A DNA stretch of 64,000 nucleotides, from contig CP154954.1 in assembly GCA_039621445.1 (NCBI GenBank), forward strand, positions 48,711,847 to 48,775,846. The letters are read 5' to 3'. Made by a program: the position numbers and the translations under genes. Below, piece by piece: positions 5,760 to 63,000 of the stretch (position 1 is the first letter of the stretch; each line of letters starts with the position of its first letter). The notes beneath the pieces were generated by a model. That model ran no database searches, was not told the DNA's origin, and was given only the letters and a program-made list of their open reading frames with translations. Source of the DNA: Euglena gracilis (Eukaryota).

Positions 5760-7782
5760 CACACTTGACCAGTGTAGGCTCCAGTTTTTGCAATATATGC
5801 TCATTTTACCAATTGCTGAAGAAGCCAAAGCCAAAGCATTTGCCGTCTCAATTGACAGACAACCCACAGGGAGCGGTCTACTATTCGGGGGGGGGGGGCA
5901 CTATTCGGAACGTTGGTCGAAAACTGAGGGAGGGGGACAATTGGGGGGGAGGGGGCGTCTATTCAGGGGGGGTAGTCACTGGCAGACCCCCAGGGTTTGT
6001 GACTGTTTTTTTCAGAGTGATTGAGTGGTTGTTGGCCCAGACCTCCTCCCCCCTTGGGGGTGGTCTGCAAAAAAAAATGAAAGTAAATACCCAGTGCTGA
6101 AGGCGACAAAAAAACCTTTTTGCCATTTGTTTTTTTTTGTTTTTTTTTACGTTTGTGGTCAATTCCCCCTTGGGATTCAGAGTGGCCACCCCCCCCCCCA
6201 CCAGGTAGTGGGTAGTGACTGACTGGTTTTTGGAAGTGTGGAACTGACCCTAGGGCGGTAAAAATTGCATGGAACCCGTGACAAAATGCTGGTGGTCAAC
6301 CGTTTGATCGCCCCAGCCAACCGTCCAGCCAAACCCAACGTTGGCCCCCGAAACGTTCCGCTCACCCCTGCGCGGTGGCGTTTGCCCCCGTTCCATGTCG
6401 GCGCGGAGGAGAAGTCGCTGGAGGAGCTGGCGAAGGGGGCGGAGGACCTCCAGCGGCTTCAGCAGCTCGAGCAGCTCCAGCAGGAGGAGGCCTCGGCGAG
6501 GACCGCCCAGGGCGTGCCTGCCGCGGAGGCCCCGACCCACCGAGCAGCGCAGGGCGGGCCCGCTGGCTGTGTTGCGGCCCGCGAGGGGTTGATCCAGCCG
6601 CAGCGGTTTGATCCTCTCAAATAAAATTTTGCTGTCCACATTTTTGTCCCAATTTGATTCAATTTAATTGATCGGGTCACAGCATTGGCATCGGCATTAG
6701 TATTAACGTACAGCATTGCTGCGTGTTTCTGGTTTTTTGCCTCCTTGTTTTTGTTTTGGCCCGAGGCAATGCGTTTGCAGCCATCGTGCGGAAGGGTCTG
6801 TGCGACGGTTCCCGGCGATGTGCCGGCTTCCCTCCATTCCTTGGCGTCCGGCGCCGCCCTGCGGTGGTCCCAGTGTGCCTTGCACTTTCGCTTCCGCTGC
6901 GGCCCCTTCCTGCAGCAAGGTGCCGATGGGCAGTGGCGCTGCCTCCCCCGCTTCGCCTGCCAGTACTCCTCCCCGCTGGTGTGCAGGGGCCCCCTTCCCG
7001 CTGAGCTGTTGGAGCCCCACTCCTGTGATGACGTCCCAAACATCCCACGCACATCCCTTTCCCAAATGGCGACCACATCTGTTCCCCAATAGAAAGCATT
7101 TTTAGATTTTTAGAATAGAAGCGTTTTTAGATCGAAGTAGGACGAGAAGTTGATGCCCTTGTGGTGCCCTTTCACAGCTAGTTGTTGCTGTTTTTTGAAA
7201 AGGGGACAGTTACAAAAGAAAATGGCAGCTGACCATCCCTGTGGGCCAGGATCTGAAGTCAAGCTGTTTGGGGACGAGTTCAACAAGCCGGCCGCCACTC
7301 CCTTGTGTGATGTATGCCAACCCATCCATCCTCAGCTCTACCACCCCGTCACAGATACCAGCGGTGGCCGCCCCCAGCGTGGAGGTTCCCAGCAGCATGC
7401 CTCCCGCGGAGCCTCAGCCTGCCCAACGCGGGCGCAGTGCCTCTGTGCAGTCCCTCCTTTGGCCGTTTGCAACAGAAATCTGCCGCGTCAGGCTGAAAGG
7501 CTTGCGGCAGTCTTTACGCTGCAACTGAAAAGCTGAGTGCCTCGGTTGGCTGGCTTTGGCATGGCATGGTGATGAATGGGAGGGGCTGGGCCCAGCTCCA
7601 GTAGCTCCAGCAGTAGCTCCAGCAGCCGACACAGCGACAGCACGCGCGCCCCAACTCCGGAGCCGGAGAATGCAAACGTCAACTGGCACGATATTAACGT
7701 TGGGCCTGCAGGCTATGGTCGGAGGCTGCTGCGGAAAGGGTGTGCTGAGTTTAAAGATTCCCTGCAGGGGGATCCTGCATAA
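613..7782 (+). CDS. Multi-exon gene of unknown function (probably 5'-truncated; exon structure only partly resolved)
   Basis: GC3-rich exon-like islands: ~613-716 (GMQIRLKTEDLTQLHTEERAAAVEVEMRVIPSIE|gt), ~1335-1355 (DYVAMHTR), ~6397-6552 (EEKSLEELAKGAEDLQRLQQLEQLQQEEA, coiled-coil like), ~6835-6990 (ALRWSQCALHFRFRCGPF...), ~7258-7310, possible last exon ending TAA at 7782. No family recognised; joining them into one gene is inference. Confidence 0.4.
919..1203. mobile_element. hAT-type MITE
   Basis: Ends CAGGGTTTTTTT...AAAAAAACCCCTG; flanks TGTGGAGT (911-918) / GGTGGAGT (1204-1211), 7/8 TSD match. Confidence 0.75.
1875..4084. mobile_element. Non-autonomous hAT-type DNA transposon, 2.2 kb
   Basis: Perfect 14-bp TIR CAAGCACCTATAGT...ACTATAGGTGCTTG; perfect 8-bp TSD GTCGGGAT (1867-1874, 4085-4092); subterminal (GAAAATGGCC)n arrays at ~1890-1945, ~1975-2020 and ~4006-4055. 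Confidence 0.9.
4566..4938. mobile_element. TTAA-flanked repeat element (GG...CC ends, possibly Kolobok-like)
   Basis: TTAA on both sides; a related copy in opposite orientation starts at ~28291 and resumes at ~29288 after a nested insertion. TIRs are weak. Confidence 0.45.
5973..6270. repeat. Dispersed repeat family (GTGACTGACTGGTTTT motifs)
   Basis: Homologous copies at ~15908-16356, ~46431-46732 and ~57280-57972. Confidence 0.7.
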
Positions 7783-15596: not shown

Positions 15597-16644
15597 ACGG
15601 GTTGGGAGAGAGCCCAAAAGGGCATCCACCGTTGTTCCACCTAGCGAATTTGTGGTTCGCAAAACAGCCTCAAATTCTTGTACGGTGGGGGGTTCAGGCA
15701 TCTGAGCATCCATCAGGTTCACAGCACGCTTCATGGCTGTGGAACACATCGAAAGGATATTGGCGGCTGAAATAAATACGAATGGTTTTTGTTTCATTTT
15801 CCGTTCACTGGTGCCCATAGGGGTAACTGTGAACGTTAAATGGTTGTTCCTATGGTCACCCGTGAACACCTTTGAGTGTTCATGGGTACCATTGCATACA
15901 ATAACTTAGTCACTGCCCCCGCCCCCCCCCCGGGGGGTGACTGGTTTTTTCAGAGTGACTGACTGGTTTTTGGCCCGGACCCCCTCCGGGGGGTCGGCAA
16001 AAAATCGTACCGGGGGGGGTCGGAAAACAAAAGTGACCCGGCGCCTAAGGGGGATCGGCACACCCCTCCCCCCCCCCTCCCCCCCTTTTCAGACCCCCTC
16101 GCCACGCCATGTCAGGCCCGCCAAAGAAAATTTTCTTGGCAAACCCCCTCTAGCCGGAAACCTCGCCACGGCGTGCCGACCCCCCTCCGGAATTTTTTTT
16201 GGCCTTTTTTTCATGTTTTGGGTCAAATTTCCTTTGGATTCCAGAGTGGCCGACCCCCCCCCCCGGGGGGGGGTAGTGACTGATGGCTTCCCGAAAAAAG
16301 TGACTGACTGGTTTTTTTGAAAAGTGGAGTGACTGGGGGGTCGGTAAAAACTTGTATGTACCCTTGGAGGTACCGGTGAACGCCCAAAAGTGCACCCATG
16401 AACGCTAAAAAAACACCAAAAAATAGCCCTGTAGGCATCTGGTCGGAAAAAATTGCCTACATTAGGGTAACCCGTGACTTTGTTAAACGGTTTTAAACTG
16501 GAAACGGGATTCAACCCCCGTTTTCGCACGGGGAATCATGTTTGAATCCCGTTTCCGCTTATAGAACGCGAGGCGTAAGCAATGAGGAGCACACCAACTG
16601 TCTGCCTCCATTTTTTCCCCTCACGGGACCCACCAGTAGCATTA

Positions 16645-21489: not shown

Positions 21490-24400
21490 ATGGGCTGCGT
21501 CTATTGTGTGGAGCAGTCAGAGGTTGCTATTGTTGAATCATGGGGAAAGTACGAAGCCACACATCTCCCTGGCATTCATTGTTTAGTTCCATGCAGAGAT
21601 CAAGTTGCCGGCAAATTGACTTTGAGGACACGAGAACTCCACATCAAAGTTGAAACTAAAACAGCTGACAATGTGTTTGTGACAGTGCTCATGCTCCTTT
21701 CTTCATCCCTTGTAGTTATTTTCCCATTTTATATCAGAGCTTGAAAGAACTTTTTGAGGATTTTGCCTTTCACTTTTTTTCCATGCAAAAATTTACCGAC
21801 ACTAACAGATTCTGCAGGGGCGCTGGGACATGCGAGCGAAGCGAGCGGCCCGGTGCCCCTGCTGTTAGTGTCGTTCTAAAAACCTATTTTGTGTGCCCGC
21901 ACGCCTGTCTTGAATTTCATTCTACCGAACCGCCTGGATGGAAATATTGCCAAATAAGTGGTTTCCTGAATGGAGATCCACCGACCTAAACAGATTCCGA
22001 TGTCTTGGAAATCGACCAACCTTTGTTTCATTTTTCTGAATGACATTTTGTTCCATTTTGGGCATTTTTGGCAACATCTACATTTCCCCAAATTCTCGAC
22101 CAATGAAACTGAAATTCCTGATTGTTAGATGATCAGGATCGTATCCGCCTGTTTCTGTTTCCACCAAAGAGTAGTAGCCTAGTAGGTCAATCTTTGTTCT
22201 TAATGGGATCCCCACCCCATTTTGCACAGCCAAAGGAAAAACCAGTGAAACCAGATTAGGGGAACCCCCTTTTCCATTTGTTTTATCGAAGCTTTGCATC
22301 GGTCACAAAGCTCAGTGGCCAGAACACAGGGTCAGTGACCTGAGGTTGTGGGTTCGAGCCCCACTGTGTGCATTTCCATTTTTGCACTAATGTGAAATGA
22401 TGTGCCTTGGGTTCAAAAACTGCATTCACAGTGGGGTTCACAATGGGCATTTTTTGAAGAAAAAAAACAAAACAATGTGCTCTTTTTAAAAAAAACATCA
22501 AAAAACAAAAGGGGAATTTCATTGAAAAAAAAACTCGTCCACACTACGAAACAGAGTCCTCGGGATCCTTTTTTCACCACAGCAGGTGCTTTTTGCATCT
22601 CAGCAACAAGAAACTCCAGGGATGAAGGGGCTTTCAGACTGGCCTCCCACACGAGGTTTTGCCGCTTGGCCACGAAGAACAATCTATAAAAAAAATGAAG
22701 AATCAAAATTTCGCTTTTCAACTTCACCTATTTCAACATTTACTGATTTTAGCAGGGGCACCGTTACAATGAAACGGGTTTAAAGACAGGAGCCCGTTTC
22801 TTTGAAACGATTTTCAGAGGGGCGCCTTTACTATAAAACGGTTTTCTGAGGGGCGCCGTTTTCTTGACAAAAACCACAAAAAAAAAACGGGAAAAAAGCG
22901 TCCGTACGGGTTACTAATCGTCGAACGTTGTTCAAGACAGGCGTGCGGGCCCTGCAAAATAGGTTTCAGAACAATCGACTGCACTAACAATTTTAGCAGG
23001 GGCGCCGGAGGCGCCAGGCCGCCCGGCGCCCCTGCTAAAACCGCTAGTGGCAGTTGATTTTTGTATAAAAACTTTTTTTCTGGGCTCGATGTCTGTCTTG
23101 AATTTCTGCTGATTTAAATGGAATTCAGGCTAAAATTGTTTAGGTCATTCCATTCAGGCGCCCGCTTAGGTCAGTCAATTTCCAAGCCGTAGAAATCTGT
23201 TGCTGGTCAGATTCGGAATTTTTAGTGAAATTTTGGACATTTTTGGAGTTTTACTTTTCTTCGAAATTTTGGGCACCATGGAGTTCAGGGAGCATTTTTA
23301 GCCTAGTCAGAGTGAATTTTTTCGGTCAGAGGGCAAAGATGACAGTTTTATTTTCTTGTCAATTCAAAGTTTTTTGTCCATTCTGACTTGCATGGCTGTC
23401 ATCGCCCACATAGCTGGATGGAGATGTGTGTTCGAACTGCACCATAGTTGGCAATTTGTTTTTTTTTGGATGCTGTTTTTTTTTCAAAATTCAACAATGT
23501 TTTTTAAAAAACAACAAAAAATACCCATGAGGTTTTGCACAGAAAAAATTTTGAAAGCATATTTTCACTCATTTTGGCAATTTTGGGTCATTTCTGCCAA
23601 AAAATCCTTCCACAAAAAAGTGAAAAAAGTCATAACACAACATTGTTTTGCATTTTTGGATGGTTTTGACCATTTTTTTGGCAGTGTTTGAATTTAGTGT
23701 CAGCGGCCCAAAAAAGGCTGAATGCCAAGATTTTCGAGGTGTTCGCTGTGAAGTGTGTAGTGTTTGGTGGCACTGGAAGTGTGTGGATCTCCGACATCCA
23801 TCCAGATTTGGGTGGATGTGCGAGGGCTGTCGCAACGCTATGCAGTAGTTCGGTTTCAGTTGTGCAGTCCTGGTCGTGATTGTGTCTGGGTTATTTTTGT
23901 CACGTTTCTGTACTTACCACGTTTTCAGCTCTTTTTGAGCTCTGGGACACTAGAACCAAACCTGCGTGTGCAATTCTGCATTCACATATTCGTCATCTGT
24001 TCCATCAGTTACCAGGCAGGTACAAGTACAAGTAAACGGGCGCCCCTCTGAAAACCGTTTTAAAGAAACGGGCGCCTGCCTGTCTTGAAAACCGTTTTAT
24101 TGAAACGGATGCCTGTCTTGAAAACCGTTTCATTGTAACGGCGCCCCTGCTAAGTTCCGTTAATGTCATTAAATTTTTAGGACAGGCGTCGGGCCCTGGA
24201 AATAGATTTTAATGGAGGCTGGGTGGTCAGGGGGGAGATGAATTTGAGGGGGGGTCTGGCCGGGGCGGCGCACGCGGCGCTTTTGCTACGGGCCAAATTT
24301 AGGACATTTTTTAAAAAAAATTGAAAAATAAAAAATTTCGGTAGTTTTTCAGACCGGGACAGCAGTTGTTTAATGAAATAATGTCGAAAAAATTCAGTCC

Positions 24401-35810: not shown

Positions 35811-36178
35811 AGTGTGCCAAAAGTTTGTATACCCCCTCGGGTTTTGTGGGCGGGTACTCAACCCCAAGCCCCAAAGCCCATGTTACCGATGGGCTGTGGT
35901 GATGGTGTGCGCACACACCCCAGTATTGACCACCTCGCCCCCTTGCCGGGCTGGGGTTTGAGTGCCAAACAAAAAGGGCCACGGATTGAAAGGTTTTGCT
36001 CTTGCACAATTGGCCTCAGATTTGCACAAAGCCCTGTGTGTGGCAGAGGTTGGTGCTGCTGTGCGGCAGGTCTGTGCAAGCATTCACACACCATCACCAC
36101 AGCCCATGGGTAACATAGGCTTTGGGGTTGCGTGCGCGCCCACAAAACTCGAGGGCGTATAAAAAATTTTGGCACACT
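35811..36178. mobile_element. Foldback MITE with ~100-bp imperfect inverted repeats
   Basis: 35811-~35910 is the approximate reverse complement of ~36084-36178; no TSD seen. Confidence 0.65.
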
Positions 36179-36490
<312 letters not shown>

Positions 36491-36718: not shown

Positions 36719-44935
<8,217 letters not shown>

Positions 44936-46235
44936 ACCCTCCCTCCGAACGTTAAAATCGCATGATTTTCCTTTTGAGCGGAGACACTGCAATCCCCCTC
45001 CTCCCGCGGATTTCTTTCGACGGCCTTGTTCTAACCTGGCCGGCCCCATATCGCATAAAGGAACATGGCCAGTGATCAAAATTGATCTTGGACCATTTAT
45101 CTTTGTGACGACTTGCGATATTCTTTGCGCAAAACCAAACCGCCCCAAATGTGAACACTCACCCCATCATATTCCCTGATTTTGACTTTGCCTTTTTTTG
45201 GAGCCAAATGGGCTTTCCATTGCCTATTTTGAGATTATTCTTTTCACTGGTTTTTGATTTCACATCTGAAGCATATCCCAAATTCGATCCAAGTCATTGA
45301 TGTCATTTATGGTGAAATATTAAGAGCGATGATATCTTTTGTTTGGATGAAATTTCTAACTCTACAACAACTGCAATGCCACCCGGTGCACCCGGGCAAC
45401 AGTAGTGCCATCTGGGGGGGGGTCTTGGGGGTTCCGCCCAAATGTGGATCCAGGGTGTGGGCGGCTGAAATTGGTTCTGAAGTGCCACCACTTTAAAATG
45501 TGCCTTTTTGTTTCATTGTTTAATGTGTTCATGTCGGATCATCCGTTGACCTAACCCCTGTGTGATCCTCGGTGAATGGGTGGGAGGGCCTTCGACAGAG
45601 GGTGGGTGGGTGGGTTTGGTGGGGTGGTGGGGCATGGGTCAAACCAACCCGACAAACCGGAGGATGGGCTGTCCGAAAAAATTTAAGGGGATTTGGCCGA
45701 GTTTTGGGAGGCTTTTGGCTGGGTGAGTGGATGCACCCCCTGGGGGGTGCGGTTGTTGGTGGGTGGGTGGGGTTTCGGGGAAAAAAAACGGTTGGGTGGA
45801 TTTGGGCCCGGGGCACCCCTCCCATGGCCACCGAGTGAATCTACGTGCCGGATGTGTAACGCACCCCTCCCCAGAGGTTGTAACCACAGCAGCACAACGA
45901 AGATTTTAGATGGCGCTCCGGCTTTAAAAATTGCAAACAGGAAACTCGCATGAAACAGGTTTTTTGGAGGTTGTGGAAATTTTGTGGCGTTTGATTCGGA
46001 TTTATTACGGTATATGGAGTTTGGCTTACGGTTTCAGTTTGCAAGTTCAAAAACCAATTGATTATTATGTGCTCATTTCTACGTGTCAACAATTGGCAAC
46101 ATATACAGAATTCTGTGCACATTTTGTGTACATTGTAATGTTCATGGTTTGAGTGCCAAATCCCCCCTCCTTTGAAATTTCTGTCCCATGCTGCCAGTTC
46201 CCCCTCTCACCATAGCCCTCCTCCACCCGCAACAG

Positions 46236-48922
46236 ATGGATCTGGTTCGCTCACCCTGGAACTGGAGCATCTGGAATGCGCTGGCCGGCGTGTCAGGCAC
46301 TGCCACCCCTTCCGAGTCAGGGGTGGTCGTGTGTGATTTTGTCTTCCGCCTCAAGCACACCACACACTGGGAAAAAGGTTGGTTTGCTTGGACCATGCCA
46401 TTGCTTAACACCTGTCCCACCCAACCCAACGGGGGGTGACTGACTGGTTTTTTCAGAGTGACTGACTGGGTTTTTTTTTTGTCCCAGAGCCCCCCCTCTG
46501 GGGGGGGGTGGGGTCGGCCCAAAAATGAAAAAGTGGCTGGTCTGGCGCCGAAGGCGCCGGAATTTTTTTGGATTTTTGAGACTTTTTGGCAAATTTTCAT
46601 AGCCTTCTGAAGAGTGGCCGATCCCCCCCCGGGGGGGGGGGTAAAGTGACTGACTGGTTTTTTTCGGAGAAAGTGGCTGACCGGTTTTTTCAGAGTGGAA
46701 AGTGACCTCCCCTCCCCCCGGGGGTCGCTAAGCAATGGTATGGCTTGGACCACAACTTTGCATTTTTGACTTTTTTTCATTTTCCCTTTGCACCTGCCTT
46801 GCCAAGCGCTTGGCGCTGATTTACAAGAATCAGCGGGGAATCGGGGGCCCATTATTACGACAGCTTTTGCCAATTCGCACAAAAGGTTGCCAAAATCGCG
46901 ACCTTTCTGGACCGAAAGCCCCTCTGACTCAAGGTCACACACGCCAAACCCCGACACCACCCTCTGAGGTTTCCGGCACCACTGCCACTGGCGCAGACCG
47001 TTCACGGCGGGCGCCACCGGGCCCTCCCAGTACTTCACCCTCAAGGTGCGGAACGGCACCAAGCTGGACGCGCCGCTCTTCGTGCTGGGCAAGGGTCAGG
47101 ACCCTGGCCACCGGCCAGCCCACCCCCCGGCAGCGGAGGTCTCTCCCACATGGGGCCCACCCCCGGCAGCGGAGGTCTCTCCCACATGGGGCCCACCCCC
47201 GGCAGCGGAGGTCTCTCCCACATGGGGCCCACCCCCCGGCAGCGGAGCTCTCTCCCACATAGGATGGAGGTGCGGCGATGCGAAGCCGGATGGCAGGGTA
47301 TGGAAGGTTCAAAGGGGATTTCGTTTTCCGGCAACAACACCGGACAGGAACTAAAGGGTTGGTCAAAAATGATTGGAAAGACCGAAGGCAGTGAAAAATT
47401 GGTTCCAACCAAATATCACCAGACACATTTGTGGTTTTTGTGCTTTTTTCACTTTGCATTTTCCGCTTTATAAATTTTCTCTTTGTTGCAATCCCCCCCA
47501 AAACGCTTCGGATTCTGCTGGAGAAAAAATCTGATTTGAAGTTTTCCTTATTCTTTAGATTCTCTTTAGTGGCGAGGTTTACATTTCAGCACGTCCAGCA
47601 CGTCCCAAAAATGTAAAACCGCATTTTTGCGGCTTTTGGTGAACCTGAATAATCCAGACAATCCAAGAGCTTTTTTTTTTGCAGGTGTTGTGCCGCATTT
47701 TGGAGGGTCCCTCCTACGTCCCCATCCCTTGGTATCTGTTGGTACATTTTGCAAATGAATTATGCAGGTGCTTTTTGGAGAAAGGGATGTCGTTGGGTGT
47801 GGCCTGGATCGTTTGCATAAAGGAGAGGCGCCAAGCAGTGTTACGCCGCTTGGAACCCTGGCTGCTTGGGTTGTGTTTGAGACTGATTGTCCCGTGATAT
47901 GCGTCGATCCCCGGCTGGGGGAGGCGCTGCCCCCACAAGGAAGGGCAGTACGCCATGGTGGAGGCGTACCCAGGGTTCGATATAAGGAGGGTGTCACAGC
48001 TGTTGGTGGGGGTCCTGAGGGAGTCTGGACCTCCCCACCCGCCAGGGGTCTGGATGGACCCGGGGGGAGGTGCCTGGGACCCGTCAAACGGTCAACTTTT
48101 CCTTCCGGCGCTTTCCGCCGAAAACTTCGGCAATTTGAAAGAGTTCTGCCCAAAAGCAAACCAAAATGGCATTCTGGGTTGAATTTGGGAGGAGCGTGCC
48201 CTCGTTGACCGGAGGGGAGGGAGAGCCTGACTCCCCCCTCCCCCCTTGCCACCCATACGCCGAACCCTGGCGCACCTCCACTTCAACGATGGCGGCGTGG
48301 CGTCCTTCGTGCCCGCCACCACCGCCGGGCCCTCGCCCACCCCCCTGCCCCTCCGATGGCCCCCCCCCCCCGCCCGACCTGATAGGCGGCGCCTGAGCCA
48401 TCGCTGGTCCCTTCCGTCAACCCTCCCCCCCCGGTCGTCTTGGGGCAGCGGTTGTCGCGGCGCGGCAGCACACGGCGCAGGGGGATGGCCGCGGGGGCGT
48501 ACGCCCGGAAGCTGTCCGACTTCCCTGCCGGGGCCCACCCCCGCAACGCTGCCCTGCGCTGTTCTCCCTCGGGTTGCAGGAGGGCTGGGGCGACCTGTGG
48601 AACTTCCCCCAGATGGGCGGATTAGTTGCAGGGGGAGCTGCATTGCACCCAGCGTTGCTGCCGAGAAATTTCCACATTGAGAGGCGGAGATTTACCTCCC
48701 CCCCCCCCCCGGCCTTGCCACACGGCTTGCCCATGGCCCCTCCCCCCTCAGCCGCGTTTCCCCTGTCCTTTGTCGTGGCGGCTGTATCAACGAGGGACTG
48801 GGGGCCCCATCGCAGCGACCCGAAGGACCCCTCTCTGCGGGTGCTCACCATCCCGAAGACCATCGGCGGCCGCCTGTACTTTTCCTTCGCCGAGCCCGTG
48901 GTGCTGTCGGTGGTGGCCCAGG
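46236..48922 (+). CDS. N-terminal exons of the GH64 beta-1,3-glucanase region, copy 1 (cut off from the catalytic exons by the duplication junction)
   Basis: Exons 46236-46296, 46997-47094 (PFTAGATGPSQYFTLKVRNGT..LFVLGK), 47570-~47611, ~47685-47730, ~47901-47967, 48274-~48330 (YLHFNDGG), two or three small exons, ~48792-48922 (LTIPKTIGGRLYFSFAEPV, matching the GH64 'P..SGRIYFS' motif). Confidence 0.7.
47120..47260. repeat. 36-bp tandem repeat, about 4 units (single unit in copy 2 at ~58370-58400)
   Basis: Unit CCCCGGCAGCGGAGGTCTCTCCCACATGGGGCCCAC; intronic. Confidence 0.9.
47971..48269. mobile_element. Decayed hAT MITE that constitutes a nonconventional intron
   Basis: Starts CAGGGTTCGATATAAGGAGGG and ends CGAACCCTG; interior is collinear with the MITE at 57290-57693; flanks GCGTACC / GCGCACC. 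Also present in copy 2 (~59112-59396). Confidence 0.8.
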
Positions 48923-49899
48923 CTGCCCTTGGCCCGCGGGCCCAATTGCAACGTCATCGTACTGCCGCTGCCCCAACACGCTTGATGACACCCTCAGACT
49001 TATTTCAGGGCAGGTCGTACCCCCCCCCAGTGCTATGGGCACTGTCGACCCCCCCCCCTACCCTTGTGGGGTGGGTGTTTTGGGCAGCGATGGTACCCCC
49101 CGGAAAATGCCTGATGAATAGCCTTTTCAAGGGAAACTTGGGGCGGAACACCCAAGGATTTTTTTCTTTCTTGCTACGAGCAGGGCCCCCGATGGCAGAT
49201 ACTGCCCCATTGCCCCGCCATCCCAAGCAAGTGGTACCCTGGGTCGCCGAACCGAAGTCCGCTATGGGCTTTCTCCGGTGCGATACAATGTCCTCTCCGC
49301 CTTTTACCCTTCCTCTCATCCTAAGGAGCAGGGACACCGAGCCAAATAATTTTAACACCGGAGTACGACCGAGCTGTCCATTGGTTTCCTGCCCCCTCCC
49401 CGACTCCGGTCGCAAGCTGCAGCCTTCCACCGAGGGAAAGGACCTCCAGGGGCGTGCCGTTTCCAAGACCCTCGCCGAGCCCAAAGGCTCCGGTGTGGGC
49501 GTGTGCCATTTCTGCATTCCTGTATTTCGCTGAGAACATTTTCAGGAGAACGGAACCGAACCATTTTTCGTTTTAGCTCTACAGGCTCTGAAGGGGGTGG
49601 ATGGGTACGTCCCGGACCAAGCTCCTCCCCCCCCTACCACAGGTGTTTCCTGGTACAAAGCTCCAGAAAACTTTTTTGACAGAAATGGTTCAAATACTGG
49701 GGAATGTGTTTTTTTTGTGTGCCCCCCCCCCTCGTGGGTGGGCAGGCAAGCCGGGTGTGGAATGTAAAAAGCACACACGACAGATTGACATGCCGAGGGA
49801 CTGAGTATAACCTCTTGCTGGCGTTTTTTCACACCTCTTGTCCCAGGGCCGGGAGAGTGTTTGATCTAAATCCAATCTTTGCCCCCCCCCTCCTCCCAG

Positions 49900-55773
<5,874 letters not shown>

Positions 55774-57084
55774 ACCCTCCCTCCGAACGTTAAAATCGCA
55801 TGATTTTGCTTTTGAGCGGAGACACTGCAATCCCCCTCCTCCCGCGGATTTCTTTCGACGGCCTTATTCTAACCTGGCCGGGCCCATATCGCATAAAGGA
55901 ACATGGCCAGTGACCAAAATTGATCTTGGACCATTTATCCTTGTGACAACTTGCGATATTCTTTACCCAAAACCAACCGCCCCAAATGTGAACACTCACC
56001 CCATCATATGCCCTGACTTTGACTTTGCCTTTTTTTTGGAGCCAAATGGGCTTTCCATTGCCTATTTTGAGATTATTCTTTTCATTGGTATTTGATTCCA
56101 CATCTGAAGCATATCCCAAAATCGATCCAAGTCATTGATGTCATTTATGGTGAAATATTAAGAGCGATGATATCTTTTGTTTGGATGAAATTTCTAACTC
56201 TACAAACAACTGCAATGCCACCCGGTGCACCCGGGCAACAGTAGTGCCATCTGGGGGGGGTCTTGGGGTTCCGCCCAAATGTGGATCCAGAGTGTGGGCG
56301 GCTGAAATCGGTTCTGAAGTGCCACCACCTTAAAATGTGCCCTTGTTTCATTGTTTAATGTGTTCATGTTGGATCATCTGTTGACCTAACCCCTGTGTGA
56401 TCCTCGGTGGATGGGTGGGTGGGCCTTCGACAGAGGGTGGGTGGGTTTGGTGGTGGGGCATGGGTCAGCCCAACCGACAAACCGGAGGATGGGCTATCCG
56501 AAAAAATTTTTAAGGGGATTTGGCCGAGTTTTGGGAGGCTTTTGGCTGGGTGAGTGGATGCACCCCCCTCGGGGGGAGGGGTTGTTGGTGGGTGGGTGGG
56601 GTTTTGGGGAAAAAAACGGTTGGGTGGATTTGGGCCCGGGGCGCCCCTCCCATGGCCACCGAGTGAATCTATGTGCAGGATGTGTAAAAGTTGGTATTTA
56701 TTCCCTTCCCCAGAGGTGGTAACCACAGCAGCACAACGAAGATTTTAGATGGCGCTCCGGCTTTTAAAATTGCAAACAGGAAACTCGCATGAAACAGAGG
56801 TTTTTTGGAGGTTGTGACGAAATTTTGCGGCGTTTTATTCGCATTTATTACGGTGTATGGAGTTTGGCTCACGGTTTCAGTTTGCAAGTTCAAAAACCAA
56901 TTGATTATTATGTGCTCATTTCTACGTGTCAACAAGTGGCAACATATACAGAATTCTGTGCACATTTTGTTGCACATTACGTTGTAATGTTCATGGTTTG
57001 AGCGCCAAATCCCCCCTCATTTGAAATTGCTGTCCCATGCTGCCAGTTCCCCCTCTCACCATAGCCCTCCTCCACCCGCAACAG

Positions 57085-60000
57085 ATGGATCTGGTTCGCT
57101 CACCCTGGAACTGGAGCATCTGGAATGCGCTGGCAGGCGTGTCAGGCACTGCCACCCCTTCCGAGTCAGGGGTGGTCGTGTGTGATTTTGTCTTCCGCCC
57201 CAAACACACCACACACTGGAAAAAAGGTTGGTTGGCTTGGACCATACCATTGCTTAACACCTGTCCCACCCAACCCAACGGGGGGTGACCAGGGTTTGAT
57301 ATAAGGAGGGCGTACATGGTTTAGGTGGGGGGGGGCCCCCCCCCCCCCCCCCCCCCCCTCCTGGCCCGCAGGGGGGTCCGGACCACCCCCCCCCCACCTG
57401 CCAGGGGGGTCCGGACCGACCCTCGGGGGGGTTCCCGGGACCCCCCCCCAAAAAAAGGGTCAATTTTTTCCTCCGGCGCTTCGCACCGAAAATTTTTTGC
57501 ATTTTGGCACATTTTTGCCCAAAAAGTGCCCAAAATGGCACTTTTGGTCATTTTGGGGGGTCAAAAATTTTCGGTCACCCAGACCGCGCAACTGTTTAGG
57601 TGGGGGGGGGGTGTCCCCCCCCCCCCCCCCCTCCTGGCCCGCAGGGGGGGTCCGGACCACCCCCCCCCCCACCTGTCCTTATATCGAACCCTGGGGGTGA
57701 CTGCTGGTTTTTTCAGAGTGACTGACTGGTTTTTTTTGTCCCACAGCCCCCCCCCCCCCCGGGGTGGTGTCGGCCCGAAAATGAAAAGTGGCTGGTCTGG
57801 CGCCGAAGGCGCCGGAAATTTTTTGGATTTTTGAGACTTTTCGGCAAATTTTCATAGCCTTCTGAAGAGGGCCGATCCCCCCCCCCGGGGACTGACTGGT
57901 TTTTTTTGGAAAAAGTGACTGACCGGTTTTTTTCAGAGTGGAAAGTGACCCCCCTCCCCCCGGGGGTCGTTTAAGCAATGGAATGGCTTGGACCACAACT
58001 TTGTATTTTTGATTTTTTTTCATTTTTCATTTTCCCTTTACACCTGCCTTGCCAAGCGCTTGGCGCTGATTTACAAGAATCAGCGGGGAATTGGGGGCCT
58101 ATTATTACGACAGCTTTTGCCAACTCGCGCAACAGGTTGCCAAAATCGCGACCTTTCTGGACCGAAAGCCCCTCTGCCTCAAGGTCACACACGCCAAACC
58201 CCGACACCACACTCTGCGGTTTCCGGCACCACTGCCACTGGCGCAGACCGTTCACGGCGGGCGCCACCGGGCCCTCCCAGTACTTCACCCTCAAGGTGCG
58301 GAACGGCACCAAGCTGGACGCGCCGCTCTTCGTGCTGGGCAAGGGTCAAGACCCTGGCCACCAGCCAGCCCACCCCCGGCAGCGGAGGTCTCTCCCACAT
58401 AGGATGGAGGTGTGGCGATGCGAATCCGTACGGCAGGGTATGGAAGGTTCAAAGGGGATTTCATTTTCCGGCAACAACAACGGACAGGAACTAAAATGTT
58501 GGTCAAAAATGATTGGAAAGACGGAGGGTAGTGAAAAATTGGTTCCAACCAAATATCACCGAACACATTTGTGGTTTTTGTGCTTTTTTCACTTTGCATT
58601 TTCAGCTTTTTCAATTTTCTCTTTGTTGCAATCCCCCCCAAAACGCTTCGCATTCTGCTGGGGGAAAAAATCTGATTTGAAGTTTTCCTTATTCTTTAGA
58701 TTCTCTTTAGTGGCGAGGTTTACATTTCAGCACGTCCAGCACGTCCCAAAAATGCAAAACCGCATTTTTGCGGCTTTTGGTGAACCTGAATAATCCAGAC
58801 AGTCCAAGAACTTTTTTTTTGCACGTATTGTGCCGCATTTTGGAGGGTCCCTCCTACGTCCCCATCCCTTCGTATCTGTTGGCACATTTTGCAATTGAAT
58901 TATGCACGTGCTTTTTGGAGAAAGGAATGTCGTTGGGTGTGGCCTGGATCGTTTGCGTAAAGGAGAGGCGCCAAGCAGTGTTACGCCGCTTGGAACCCTG
59001 GCTGCTTGGGTTGTGTTTGAGACTGATTGTCCCGTGATATGCGTCGATCCCCGGCTGGGGGAGGCGCTGCCCCCACAAGGAAGGGCAGTACGCTATGGTG
59101 GAGGCGTACCCAGGGTTCGATATAAGAAGGGTGTCACAGCTGTTGGTGGGGGTCCTGAGGGAGTCTGGACCTCCCCACCTGCCAGGGGTCTGGATGGACC
59201 TGGGGGGAGGTGCCTGGGACCAGTCAAAAGGTCAACTTTTCCTTCCGCCGCTTTGCGCCGAAAACTTCGGCAATTTGAAAGATTTCTGCCCAAATGGCAT
59301 TCTGGGTTGAATTTGGGAGGGGTGTGCCCTCGTTGACCGGAGGGGAGGGAGAGTCTGACTCCCCCTCCCCCCTTGCCACCCGTACGCCGAACCCTGGCAC
59401 ACCTCCACTTCAACGATGGCGGCGTGGCGTCCTTCGTGCCCGCCACCACCGCCGGGCCCTCGCCCACCCCCCTGCCCCTCCGATGGCCTCCCCCGCCCGA
59501 CCTGATAGGCGGCGCCTGAGCCATCGCTGGTCCCTTCCGTCAACCCTCCCCCCCCCTGGTCGTCTTGGGGCAGCGGTTTTCGCGGCGCAGCAACACACGG
59601 CGCAGGGGGATGGCCGCGGGGGCGTACGCCCGGAAGCTGTCCGACTTCCCTGCCGGGGCCCACCCCAGTAACGCTGTCCTGCGCTGTTCTCCCTCGGGTT
59701 GCAGGAGGGCTGGGGCGATCTGTGGAACTTCCCCCAGATGGGCGGATTAGTTGCAGGGGGAGCTGCATTGTCCCAGCGTTGCTGCCGAGAAATTTCCACA
59801 CTGAGAGGCGGAGATTTACCTCCCCCCCCCCCCGGCCTTGCCACACGGCTTGCCCATGGCCCCTCCCCCCTCAGCCGCATTTCCCCTGTCCTTTGCCGTG
59901 GCAGCTGTGTCAATGAGGGACTGGGGGCCCCATCGCAGCGACCCGAAGGACCCCTCTCTGCGGGTGCTCACCATCCCGAAGACCATCGGCGGCCGCCTGT

Positions 60001-63000
60001 ACTTTTCCTTCGCCGAGCCCGTGGTGCTGTCGGTGGTGGCCCAGGCTGCCCTTTGCCCGCGGGCCCAATTGCAACGTCATCGTACTGCCGCTGCCCCAAC
60101 ACACGTGATGACACCCTCAGACTTATTTCAAGGCAGGTCGTACCCCCCCCCCAGTGCTATGGGCACTGTCGACCCCCCCCCTACCCTTGTGGGGTGGGTG
60201 TTTTGGGCAGCGATGGTACCCCCGGAAAATGCCTGATGAAAAGCCTTTTTCAAGGGAAACTTGGGGCGGAACACCCAAGGATTTTTTTCTTTCTTGCTAC
60301 GAGCAGGGCCCCATGGCAGATACTGCCCCACCGCCCCGCCACCCCAAGCAAGCGGTACCCTGGGTCGCCGAACCGAAGTCCGCTATGGGCTTTCTCCGGT
60401 ACGATACGATGTCCTCTCCACCCTTTACCCTTCCTCTCGTCCTAAGGAGCAGGGACACCGAGCCAAATAATTTTAACACCGGAGTACGACCGAGCTGTCA
60501 ATTGGTTTCCTGCCCCCTCCCCGACTCCGGTCGCAAAGCTGCAGCCTTCTACCGAGGGAAAGGACCCCCAGGGGCGTGCCGTTTCCAAGACCCTCGCCGA
60601 GCCCAAAGGCTCCGGTGTGGGACGTGTGCCATTTCTGCATTTCTGTATTTCGCTGAGAACATTTTCAGGAGAACGGAACCGAACCATTTTTCTTTTTAGC
60701 TCTACAGGCTCTGAAGGGGGTGGATGGGTACGTCCCAGACCAAGCTCCTCCCCCCCCCCTACCCCAGGTGCTTCCTGGCACAAAGCTCCAGAAAACTTTT
60801 TTGACAGAAATGGTTCAAATACTGGGGAATGTGTTTTTTTGTGCCCCCCCCCCCCGTGGGTAGGCAGGCAAGCCGGGTGTGGAATGGCCCAGACCGGGGC
60901 CAGCGGGACCCGTTCAAGTTGGACGACCCCAGCTACTACGTCCTGTATGACAAGGTGGAGTTCACCTTCAACGATCTGGGGGTGTGGGGCAGAGCGCTGC
61001 CTTTTTTGCCTGCAGCAGTTCAAGTGCGATCCCTCACAAGGTTCTGGAAGTTCCATTTTGGGGTCTTTGTTTTGAATTCTTCTTCAGCAATCGGACACAA
61101 AAAAAAACACGTCATTTTGGGAAATGCGGAAATTGCAGGATTTGCACAAAACTTGCAAAAGAAATTATGCTGGGAGTGTGCAAATATCTGTTGGAGGGGA
61201 CTGACAAATAAATTCATCCCATTCACCCATATGGGATTCATTTTCATTTTGAAACAGTGGAGTATACTTTTGAACTGTCATTCACACTTTTTTCACAAAC
61301 CAGAAAACATAATTTCGTAATTTCGGAGTAAAAGGCCAAAAAATTGCTTCCTGGAAAAGGCGGAAATGACAAAAATTTGATAAAGCCTTTGGTCTCAGGT
61401 AGAATCCAGAATGCAAATATTTCTAAGTCGAAAGGTTATAAACCAAGATCATTTCTGAGCAGAACTCGAAAAAACCTAAGAAGTCATAAAACTCATAAAT
61501 GCAAAAATTCGCAAATTTTGCAAGAAACCAGCAGAGAGGAAGAATTTGTGCTTCCTTGCGAATCATTCAAAGGACGGCTGGAACTCACCGCCACTTCATT
61601 TTGCAGATGCCACCAAAGAATGCAGACCAAGGGAGGAAAGGAAAAAAAAACTGCAGAAAAATTGCAAAAAAATGGCGGAAATGGTGAAATTGCCAGGAAA
61701 TTGCGGACATCAATTATCCCCCCTACCGTGGTGCGGCGGGGGGTCCAGGGCGATCTCCACTGATGAAGTCTGATGCCCGAAGATATCACAAAATGGGTTT
61801 TTAATTGGGGGGAAAAGAATTTGCCGTCCCGGCACATTCATTTGAAGAAGGGGCGGGGAATTCAACAGGTTGGCAATGGGAAACAATTGCTTCCCAGCAT
61901 CCTTGGAGGAAAACAGCACTGAAACCACATCCTATGTGTGCCTTGGAATGGAAACCTTGAATCATCTTTTCCTAATGTATTCTGGCAGCAATCTTCCTGT
62001 GTGTGACGCACGCACTCAAGGAGCCAAATCTTATATCTGGAAAAGCAGTGTGTGTGTGTGTGTGTGTGCAGAGTGAGGCATTTCCGAAAACATACCGCCA
62101 CAGAAAAATTATAAGTTACTATTGTGCCTAAAAAACAACAAAAGCAAAATTAACAAGCCTCTCCAAAATCAGGTTCCCAAAAAACCATCCCTGGATTGAC
62201 TGAACAAGGACCCCCCCCAAAAAAAAACACTCCCCCTCCTCGCATTTGGAGGTGAAGCGCTGGACGCTGAAAAAATATTTCAAATCTTCCAAAAACCATA
62301 ATTTCAAACAGAAAAAAATTATTTGGGGATCATCGAGGCCAGTCAGTATAAACGCCGAGTTTCGCAGGTCAAATATGAAGCAAAAGTGCCAAATTTTTTT
62401 GGGTCGTTGGAAATTCAAAATTTCCCCCGCACTTTTCCCCAAGGCCTCCAATCTCGATTCCACCCCCCCCCCCCGTGTCCCAGCGAGCGTCCGGGCCCCG
62501 CCCTGCGCGGGATCGACACCACTGCGGTGGATTTCTTCTGCATGCCGGTCGCCCTCCACTTCGAGGGCCGGCCCGGCACCGCCGTCGGCCTCGCCCAGCC
62601 CCGCGCCGCCGTGCTGCGCACCGTGGCGGACGCCTTCGCCGGCCCCTGGGGCCGCCTGCGCCTCACGCACCCCGCCCGTCCCGGTGAGGGAGCCGCCGCC
62701 ATACACGCGTGCGCGTGCGGTGCGAGACTTGCCGCCACGTTCCCCCCTTCCCTTGGGGCCCCCCGCGTGGGACGCCGGCAACCCGGACGGCAAAGAAGCG
62801 GTCCTCCGCATCCTGGCGCCCAACAAGGCCATTGCGCAGGGGCACTCCCAGGCCGACGGTTCTTCTTTCCGCTCGGGAACCGAAGCGCCCGAGAAATTTT
62901 TTGTGCATCCTCTTTCAGCAGAGTCAGTGTCGCCGGTGCAGAATATGCTGTACCCAATTTGGACACAGTTCCGCTTGATGGGTGGTGGATGTGGACTATT

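Follow-up and report, generated by a model that had tools for sequence, protein, structure and literature searches.

The question of how the nonconventional introns of euglenids originate has stood open since the 1990s. An origin from miniature transposable elements with inverted repeats (MITEs) was proposed in 2013 (PMC3935182), and the hypothesis also stands in the available parts of PMC4770533, PMC6221363, PMC11170887 and PMC12621601; an available section of PMC12501133 states that the origins 'remain unclear' as of 2025. In this study, we analyzed a 64,000-nucleotide (nt) stretch of the Euglena gracilis genome (GenBank assembly GCA_039621445.1, contig CP154954.1, positions 48,711,847 to 48,775,846, forward strand), called the window below and numbered from its first letter. 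A nonconventional intron at 47968-48273, in a gene designated gene B, raises the question of origin for one concrete case. A sequence-only reading had proposed that this whole intron is a copy of a recently mobile MITE family of the hAT superfamily, while pointing out that a MITE origin had been suggested before. We found this transposon-to-intron interpretation to be supported, apart from the hAT label and its generality. We consider it likely that the intron is a MITE with CAG...CTG terminal inverted repeats (TIRs) and an 8-bp target-site duplication (TSD), which inserted into an exon of a GH64-like beta-1,3-glucanase gene. Its TIR stem would serve as the splice signal, one G would have been lost later, and the family would have stayed mobile.

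Removal of the intron was examined with reads mapped on 41960-50200, using two raw RNA runs (X21 and X24), a small-share run that apparently consists of RNA contigs (X15), and a run of DNA contigs (X1). The joint 47967>48274, which skips 306 nt, was present in 10 reads with 9 different starts in X21, in 9 reads with 7 starts in X24, and in one X15 contig at a depth of 160. It was absent from the contigs of the one DNA run. Depth in the mostly intronic bin 48010-48284 was 0.08/0.46 in X21 and 0.04/0.52 in X24, and in the adjoining downstream bin, which holds exon sequence, it was 1.05/4.03 and 0.28/3.28, respectively. Intron retention is therefore not evident, nor did transcripts splice at GT-AG sites away from the TIRs. 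The interruption of about 306 nt without a usable GT-AG, as predicted from the letters, is the segment that the RNA joint skips.

The borders of the intron were compared with the published Euglena code. As given in the available text of PMC12501133, this code consists of a 3-nt spacer and CAG at the donor end, CTG and a 5-nt spacer at the acceptor end, pairing directly inside these motifs, and a purine as the first exon base on the acceptor side. The same text describes the donor spacer as strict and an acceptor spacer longer by one as tolerated, with one shorter by one spliced at ~20% efficiency, and reports that synthetic 50-bp inserts following the code were spliced out of an exon. The intron reads ...GGAGGCGT / ACC-CAGGGTTCGATATAAGGAGGG...CCGAACCCTG-GCGC / ACCTCCAC, where slashes mark the junctions, and outside the TIRs it has only the 3 nt before CAGGGTTCGATATAAGGAGGG and the 4 nt after CGAACCCTG. 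On the donor side, ACC is followed by CAG (47968-47973) as in the code, and the first exon base on the acceptor side is a purine (A at 48274). Owing to an ACC repeat, the junction can slide by 3 nt; its leftmost form has the 3-nt donor spacer and a pyrimidine followed by a purine at both junctions. The intron ends are AC..GC, GT-AG occurs in none of the four slidable forms, and the removal by the spliceosome through a GT or AG made by the element or the TSD that defines introners was not found here. An inverted repeat of 10 nt, 100% complementary, joins 47970-47979 with 48261-48270; the 3' TIR retains 9 nt of the 17-21 nt of the family. The predicted minimum free energy RNA fold pairs both intron ends (z = -3.1). 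The exon bases flanking the intron are also complementary (GTGGAGG at 47958-47964, CCTCCAC at 48275-48281) and lengthen the terminal stem in the predicted fold, which could be due to chance or to a palindromic target site.

The full length of the intron is homologous to a 404-bp MITE at 57290-57693 in the same window. Global alignment of 47968-48273 with this element was collinear, from TIR to TIR, in line with the claim that the insert begins, after 3 nt, with the MITE TIR and has a collinear interior. The intron is shorter than the 404-bp copy mainly because that copy's long palindromes of G/C runs are absent from it. In a blastn search of the window with the 404-bp element, the match of element positions 100-271 to 48030-48192 had 71.1% identity over 173 nt (E 4.6e-17), and that of positions 1-42 to 47971-48012 had 83.7%. 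The local alignment score of intron and MITE was 97. Over 500 shuffles of the intron that preserved dinucleotides, the mean was 22.3 (standard deviation 3.4, maximum 39), which gives a z of about 22. Trimming each sequence by 25 nt at either end left the score at 97, compared with 21.5±3.2, and the similarity therefore extends beyond the termini.

The TIR was also searched for separately. With up to 3 mismatches, the 17-mer CAGGGTTYGATATAAGG occurred at 5 sites in 64 kb, compared with 0.32 expected, and none of 100 shuffles reached 5. These sites were 47971 in the intron, 59111 in its paralogue, 57290 (+) and 57677 (-) at the two ends of the 404-bp element, and 38002 in a degenerate copy. CAGGG was present at all termini of the family, and the TIRs at 57290/57693 paired at 17 of 17 positions, one of them U-G. 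With lengths of 404 bp and 299 bp, the two elements are short, non-coding and TIR-bounded, as MITEs are. Within the window, the family comprises three independent insertions plus one paralogue; a recognisable TSD was looked for at the degenerate copy at 38002-38213, and none was found. In the DNA run X1, long contigs break off 16 nt into the TIR, at 47986, and restart at 48157. Summed X1 depth over the intron was 521-1275, compared with ~75 nearby. Such a pattern would be consistent with a core present in many copies, although the depth gives no copy number and G/C runs may contribute. A metagenome scan with an 18-mer of the TIR gave 17 loci, all of which matched just the 18-22-nt seed, that is, by chance.

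The recent mobility of this family was evident from a tandem duplication, 39462-49764 and 49765-60886, with units of about 10.3-11.1 kb and ~95% identity. The alignment blocks 43902-46440/54750-57289 and 46432-47151/57693-58400 leave 57290-57693 as an insertion found in copy 2 only. The order in copy 2 is GGGGTGAC-CAGGG...CCCTG-GGGGTGAC, and copy 1 has GGGGTGAC once, at 46433-46440. Thus, the perfect 8-bp TSD and the empty paralogous site reported for this MITE were both confirmed, and since the element is missing from the paralogous site, it inserted after the tandem duplication. The copy-2 intron that holds it, 57164-58245, is spliced out whole in the copy-2 RNA contig. Copy 2 alone also has another insertion, at 54339-54749 (~411 bp), which belongs to a different family, with a 29-nt TIR (TAACCCCCCCCCAAATATAAAACCCCCCC, 93% complementary) and a TA duplication. 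It is Stowaway/Tc1-mariner-like, lies inside the GT-AG intron equivalent to 43456-44125, and has a 28-nt internal motif (TTCCTTCCGGCGCTTCGC...) in common with the CAGGG family. As both insertions are confined to copy 2, at least two MITE families were mobile after the duplication.

The flanks of intron 47968-48273 carry what we read as the TSD of the original insertion. The sequence-only reading had listed a remnant GCGTACC/GCGCACC. The remnant is real, and its extent needed correction to 8 bp: GGCGTACC (5 exonic and 3 intronic nt) and GGCGCACC (5 intronic and 3 exonic nt) match at 7 of 8 positions. The letters are consistent with the loss of one G from a G run and one T to C change, both at intronic positions. 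Since the G deletion is shared by both paralogues, it is older than the tandem duplication. The spacing of 3 and 4 nt outside the TIRs at the RNA joint agrees with the earlier remark that it is one nucleotide under 3+5. From the TSD remnant and the coding context, we infer that the element landed in an exon.

We propose the following course of events. Before the region was duplicated in tandem, a small non-autonomous DNA transposon with CAG...CTG TIRs and an 8-bp TSD would have entered a coding exon of a euglenid GH64-like beta-1,3-glucanase gene. The two TIRs would pair in the pre-mRNA, and their CAG/CTG stem would act as the published nonconventional splice signal, with the TIRs providing CAG, CTG and at least 17 paired bases. 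The cuts would fall 3 nt ahead of CAG and, originally, 5 nt past CTG. Because 3 + 5 = 8 is also the length of the TSD, splicing by the code removes the element together with exactly one TSD copy, which would leave no scar and restore the reading frame. In the fresh 404-bp copy, the same cuts would drop GAC-(element)-GGGGT and give GGGGT/GAC, the sequence of the empty site, with G as the first exon base. Later, one G would have been lost from the 3' spacer while the acceptor stayed on the same purine A, so that the spacers became 3 + 4. The family would have remained mobile, with the 404-bp copy entering another intron of the same gene after the duplication. The order of events, with the transposon first and the intron second, and the 3+5=8 geometry as the cause of clean removal are both part of the proposal; the observations beneath it are the homology of intron and MITE over the whole length, the TSD with its empty paralogous site, and the removal of the intron from RNA at the junction given above.

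Several observations weigh against this interpretation. The 3' spacer (GCGC) is 4 nt, compared with 5 nt in the published code. The core of the intron is just 71% identical to the mobile copy, with many indels, and 9 nt of the 3' TIR are left; either the intron copy is older than the fresh copy or it belongs to another subfamily. An intact TSD was present in one family copy only, and no intron-less orthologue or allele was seen, so that the exon insertion is deduced indirectly. Read in frame +1, the joined exons are open as well, as expected in GC-rich DNA, and both matches of gene B to the GH64 profile (described below) are under the gathering score. Junction reads could not be assigned to copy 1 as opposed to the paralogous intron 59108-59400, as the positions compared did not include 47954, where copy 1 has C and copy 2 has T. 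At the copy-diagnostic exon positions examined, 46286, 47099 and 49445, X24 had copy-2 letters only (5/5, 8/8 and 4/4 reads), as did the X15 contig. X21 was mixed, with copy-2 letters in 5/10, 4/9 and 15/20 reads, and because of this mixture both gene B copies, including the truncated copy 1, appear to be transcribed in X21. No transposase was found, the superfamily is putative, and copies of the family were counted within the window only. In the window, the family has one intron site, present in two paralogues; intron-making at many sites is thus not established.

The relationship between intron and element can also be read in other ways. The family may derive from the intron if nonconventional introns are themselves mobile, for example when an excised circular RNA is reverse-spliced and copied into DNA, and the copy at 57290 would then be a transposed intron. 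The available passages of PMC11282704 and PMC12501133 do describe nonconventional introns as released in full-length circles, and the 57290 copy lies in a transcribed region, within an intron of the same gene. However, that copy is flanked by a perfect 8-nt duplication that is single at the empty site, the hallmark of a staggered DNA cut. An intron inserted by reverse splicing brings its own 3+5 spacers and would need an 8/8 match to the target by chance, and TIRs of 17-21 nt far exceed what the splicing code needs; we regard this direction as very unlikely. MITEs of this window do enter introns, the one at 57290 a nonconventional intron and the one at 54339 a GT-AG intron, and it could be argued that the present element entered an intron that already existed; the splice signal would then predate the element, and the intron would be only partly transposon-derived. 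However, just 3 + 4 nt lie outside the TIRs, these 7 nt are the TSD remnant, and a 7-nt host intron is not credible; moreover, the element itself begins with the CAG and ends with the CTG that serve as the splice signal. With only 7 nt outside the TIRs, nesting in an older intron is excluded in practice.

A MITE-derived intron does not by itself make the family a hAT family. hAT TIRs start with YARNG, a motif that the CAGGG at all termini of the family fits, and hAT elements prefer the target nTnnnnAn. The combination of an 8-bp TSD with a CAGGG terminus is the classical one for hAT, with the TSD length seen in one perfect case (57290-57693) and in the 7/8 remnant at the intron. However, GGGGTGAC agrees with the target preference only at position 7, no transposase came to light when the 18 open reading frames of at least 220 aa in the window were listed without a domain search, and no paper on hAT elements in euglenids was found in the searchable full-text literature. 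The family may therefore belong to another superfamily with 8-bp TSDs or to an undescribed euglenozoan one, a possibility that we take seriously while leaning the other way. The hAT assignment, which draws on the duplication length and the CAG terminus, is putative and not established.

The window is nuclear DNA of euglenid type, and the gene that carries the intron was reconstructed from RNA joints. The exons of gene B lie at 46215-46314, 46996-47110, 47933-47967, 48274-48333, 48492-48526, 48814-48915 and 49432-49482. When joined, they keep a frame open over 166 codons that contains ...KEGQYAMVEAYLHFNDGGVASFV... A search with a 46-aa in-frame reference against longer proteins gave no homologue at E<=0.01, and the frame across the junction is therefore read from the RNA and the open frame, not from homologues. 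Exon 6 and the exon at 60907 each match Pfam PF16483 (GH64 beta-1,3-glucanase) with E 0.014, at the collinear profile positions 68-96 and 112-134. In the single-exon Pfam scans, PF16483 was matched in 2 of 4 fragments; one fragment had no match and one had an irrelevant weak match. The RNA contig that starts at 46215 carries nine non-genomic letters, eight T and then C, where the genome just upstream has a C-rich tract and AG. These nine letters match the 3' end of the Euglena spliced leader.

Loose read ends at 49482 and 49898 have their only matches in the window at 60907 and 39184, which means that the duplication breaks two genes, in the order A5'-[A3'-B5']-[A3'-B5']-B3'. It ends inside introns of both genes, with the upstream exon of gene A at ~39184 and the next exon of gene B at 60907. 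Intron 47968-48273 thus lies in a truncated B5' copy, a duplicate of the 5' half, and the intact gene has 59108-59400. The features are listed in Table 1.

Table 1. Positions of the intron, the MITE copies and the flanking exons in the window.
Feature	Positions	Strand	Basis or remark
Exon 3 of gene B 5' half, copy 1 (...KEGQYAMVEA-)	47933..47967	+	RNA joints, open frame
Exon 4 (-YLHFNDGGVASFVPATTAGP)	48274..48333	+	RNA joints, open frame
Nonconventional intron, 306 nt, leftmost form	47968..48273	+	RNA joint 47967>48274; slides up to 47971-48276
5' TIR CAGGGTTCGATATAAGGAGGG	47971..47991	+	CAG at intron positions +4 to +6
3' TIR remnant CGAACCCTG	48261..48269	+	CTG, then 4-nt spacer GCGC
Left copy of presumed 8-bp TSD, GGCGTACC	47963..47970	+	5 nt exonic, 3 nt intronic
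Right TSD remnant GGCGCACC	48269..48276	+	First G shared with CTG of TIR; matches left copy at 7/8; one G of the G run lost
Intact MITE, 404 bp, TIRs 17-21 nt	57290..57693	+	In duplicate copy 2 only
Left TSD of MITE, GGGGTGAC	57282..57289	+	Perfect 8 bp
Right TSD of MITE, GGGGTGAC	57694..57701	+	Perfect 8 bp
Empty paralogous site, single GGGGTGAC	46433..46440	+	Within nonconventional intron 46315-46995
First nonconventional intron of gene B, copy 2	57164..58245	+	Holds fresh MITE
Paralogous MITE-derived intron, copy 2 (intact gene)	59108..59400	+	91.7% identical to 47968-48273
Third family copy, degenerate, interrupted by another repeat	38002..38213	-	Corresponds to MITE positions 404-204

Most RNA-defined introns of the stretch lack GT-AG. 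Of the nonconventional introns other than 47968-48273, which number 7, at least 5, those at 46315, 47113 (after sliding), 48527, 48916 and 49986, fit the pattern of 3 nt, stem...stem and 5 nt with a purine acceptor. Their TSD-like flanks matched at 1-5 of 8 positions across the 7 introns and were uninformative. The introns 48334-48491 and 48527-48813 have terminal stems of the CCA/TGG-like or GGG/CCC type, not CAG/CTG, and keep the 3+5 spacing; these stems are variants of the code inside one gene.

Gene A and the repeats of the region were also described. Gene A has three GT-AG introns and one nonconventional intron, and the translation of its 3' exons (41984-45100) looks, on visual inspection, like a medium-chain dehydrogenase / enoyl reductase (...VVVYGTLANKSDRFPYIPLMYKEVTLRGFWL...). 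The intronic segments 42785-43334 and 46360-46909 had a summed X1 depth of about 100,000-400,000, compared with ~75 elsewhere, and are either very high-copy repeats or artefacts of G/C runs. The segment 46360-46909 has relatives at 15913-16317 and 6000-6064, and 42785-43334 has one at 38247-38471. Related microsatellite-like arrays were found on both strands at 36172-36490, 37617-37886, 38513-38682, 39903-40137, 41702-41955, 50211-50436 and 51969-52203. An Rfam scan of the window gave a single match, a tRNA at 22301-22372 (RF00005, 31.5 bits, barely over the gathering score).

The locus can be set beside known systems in which elements behave as introns. The maize hAT element Ds is reportedly spliced from transcripts as a de novo intron, as Giroux et al. 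are said to have described in 1994, and its removal is said to use cryptic spliceosomal sites and to be imprecise. The present element resembles Ds in its 8-bp TSD, its CAG terminus and the removal of an exonic element at the RNA level, whereas removal here is exact and would follow a stem-based code. The introners of Micromonas, Aureococcus, dinoflagellates and Fritillaria are, in the available part of PMC11282704, MITE-like elements that create spliceosomal introns. Like them, the element would be non-autonomous, have TIRs and a TSD, and turn into an intron when it inserts, with the TSD helping to restore the exon. Introners are spliced out by the spliceosome, and the TSD provides one of their splice sites; here, by contrast, the TIR stem would be the nonconventional signal, the cuts lie 3 nt and 5 nt (now 4 nt) inside the two TSD copies, and the window holds one intron site.

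The intron shares with the nonconventional introns of E. gracilis and E. agilis, as characterized in the accessible text of PMC12501133, the lack of GT-AG, CAG at positions +4 to +6, an end-pairing stem, a pyrimidine followed by a purine at the junctions, a purine acceptor and removal from mRNA, and the neighbouring introns of the same gene obey the same code. It differs from them in its 3' spacer of 4 nt instead of 5, and from the euglenid introns found in print in that the whole of it aligns to a TSD-flanked mobile element. In E. agilis ACOI 323, the recently gained gapC intron 4 likewise has 8-nt direct repeats at its junctions, which the authors, in the part of PMC4770533 at hand, regard as a trace of double-strand-break repair; unlike here, that part identifies no donor element family. 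The review PMC11282704, in its available part, already applies the term TIRs to the intron ends and describes the repeats at the junctions as TSD-like. In the searchable full-text literature, which excludes subscription journals and supplements, neither a donor MITE family nor a hAT link nor the 3+5=8 relation was found in any paper. The link of the 3+5 spacing to the TSD length, which we infer from this locus, was not found in print.

These results provide a concrete pair, a fresh TSD-flanked insertion and an RNA-verified intron with splice points 3 and 4 nt outside its TIRs. The locus is one well-documented example of a long-hypothesised process, and it comes with a testable geometric rule, 3 + 5 = 8 = TSD length. 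We tentatively suggest, at a little under an even chance, that the euglenid nonconventional code is an RNA-level mirror of the geometry of one transposon, which starts with CAG, ends with CTG and duplicates 8 bp, with cuts 3 nt upstream and 5 nt downstream. If this is true, each such MITE insertion in a transcribed exon would be an instant intron in either orientation, and the 8-nt direct repeats at the new gapC intron would be a TSD, not a repair scar. A large share of the ~70% of Euglena introns that are nonconventional would then be decayed insertions of MITEs with 8-bp TSDs (hAT-like).

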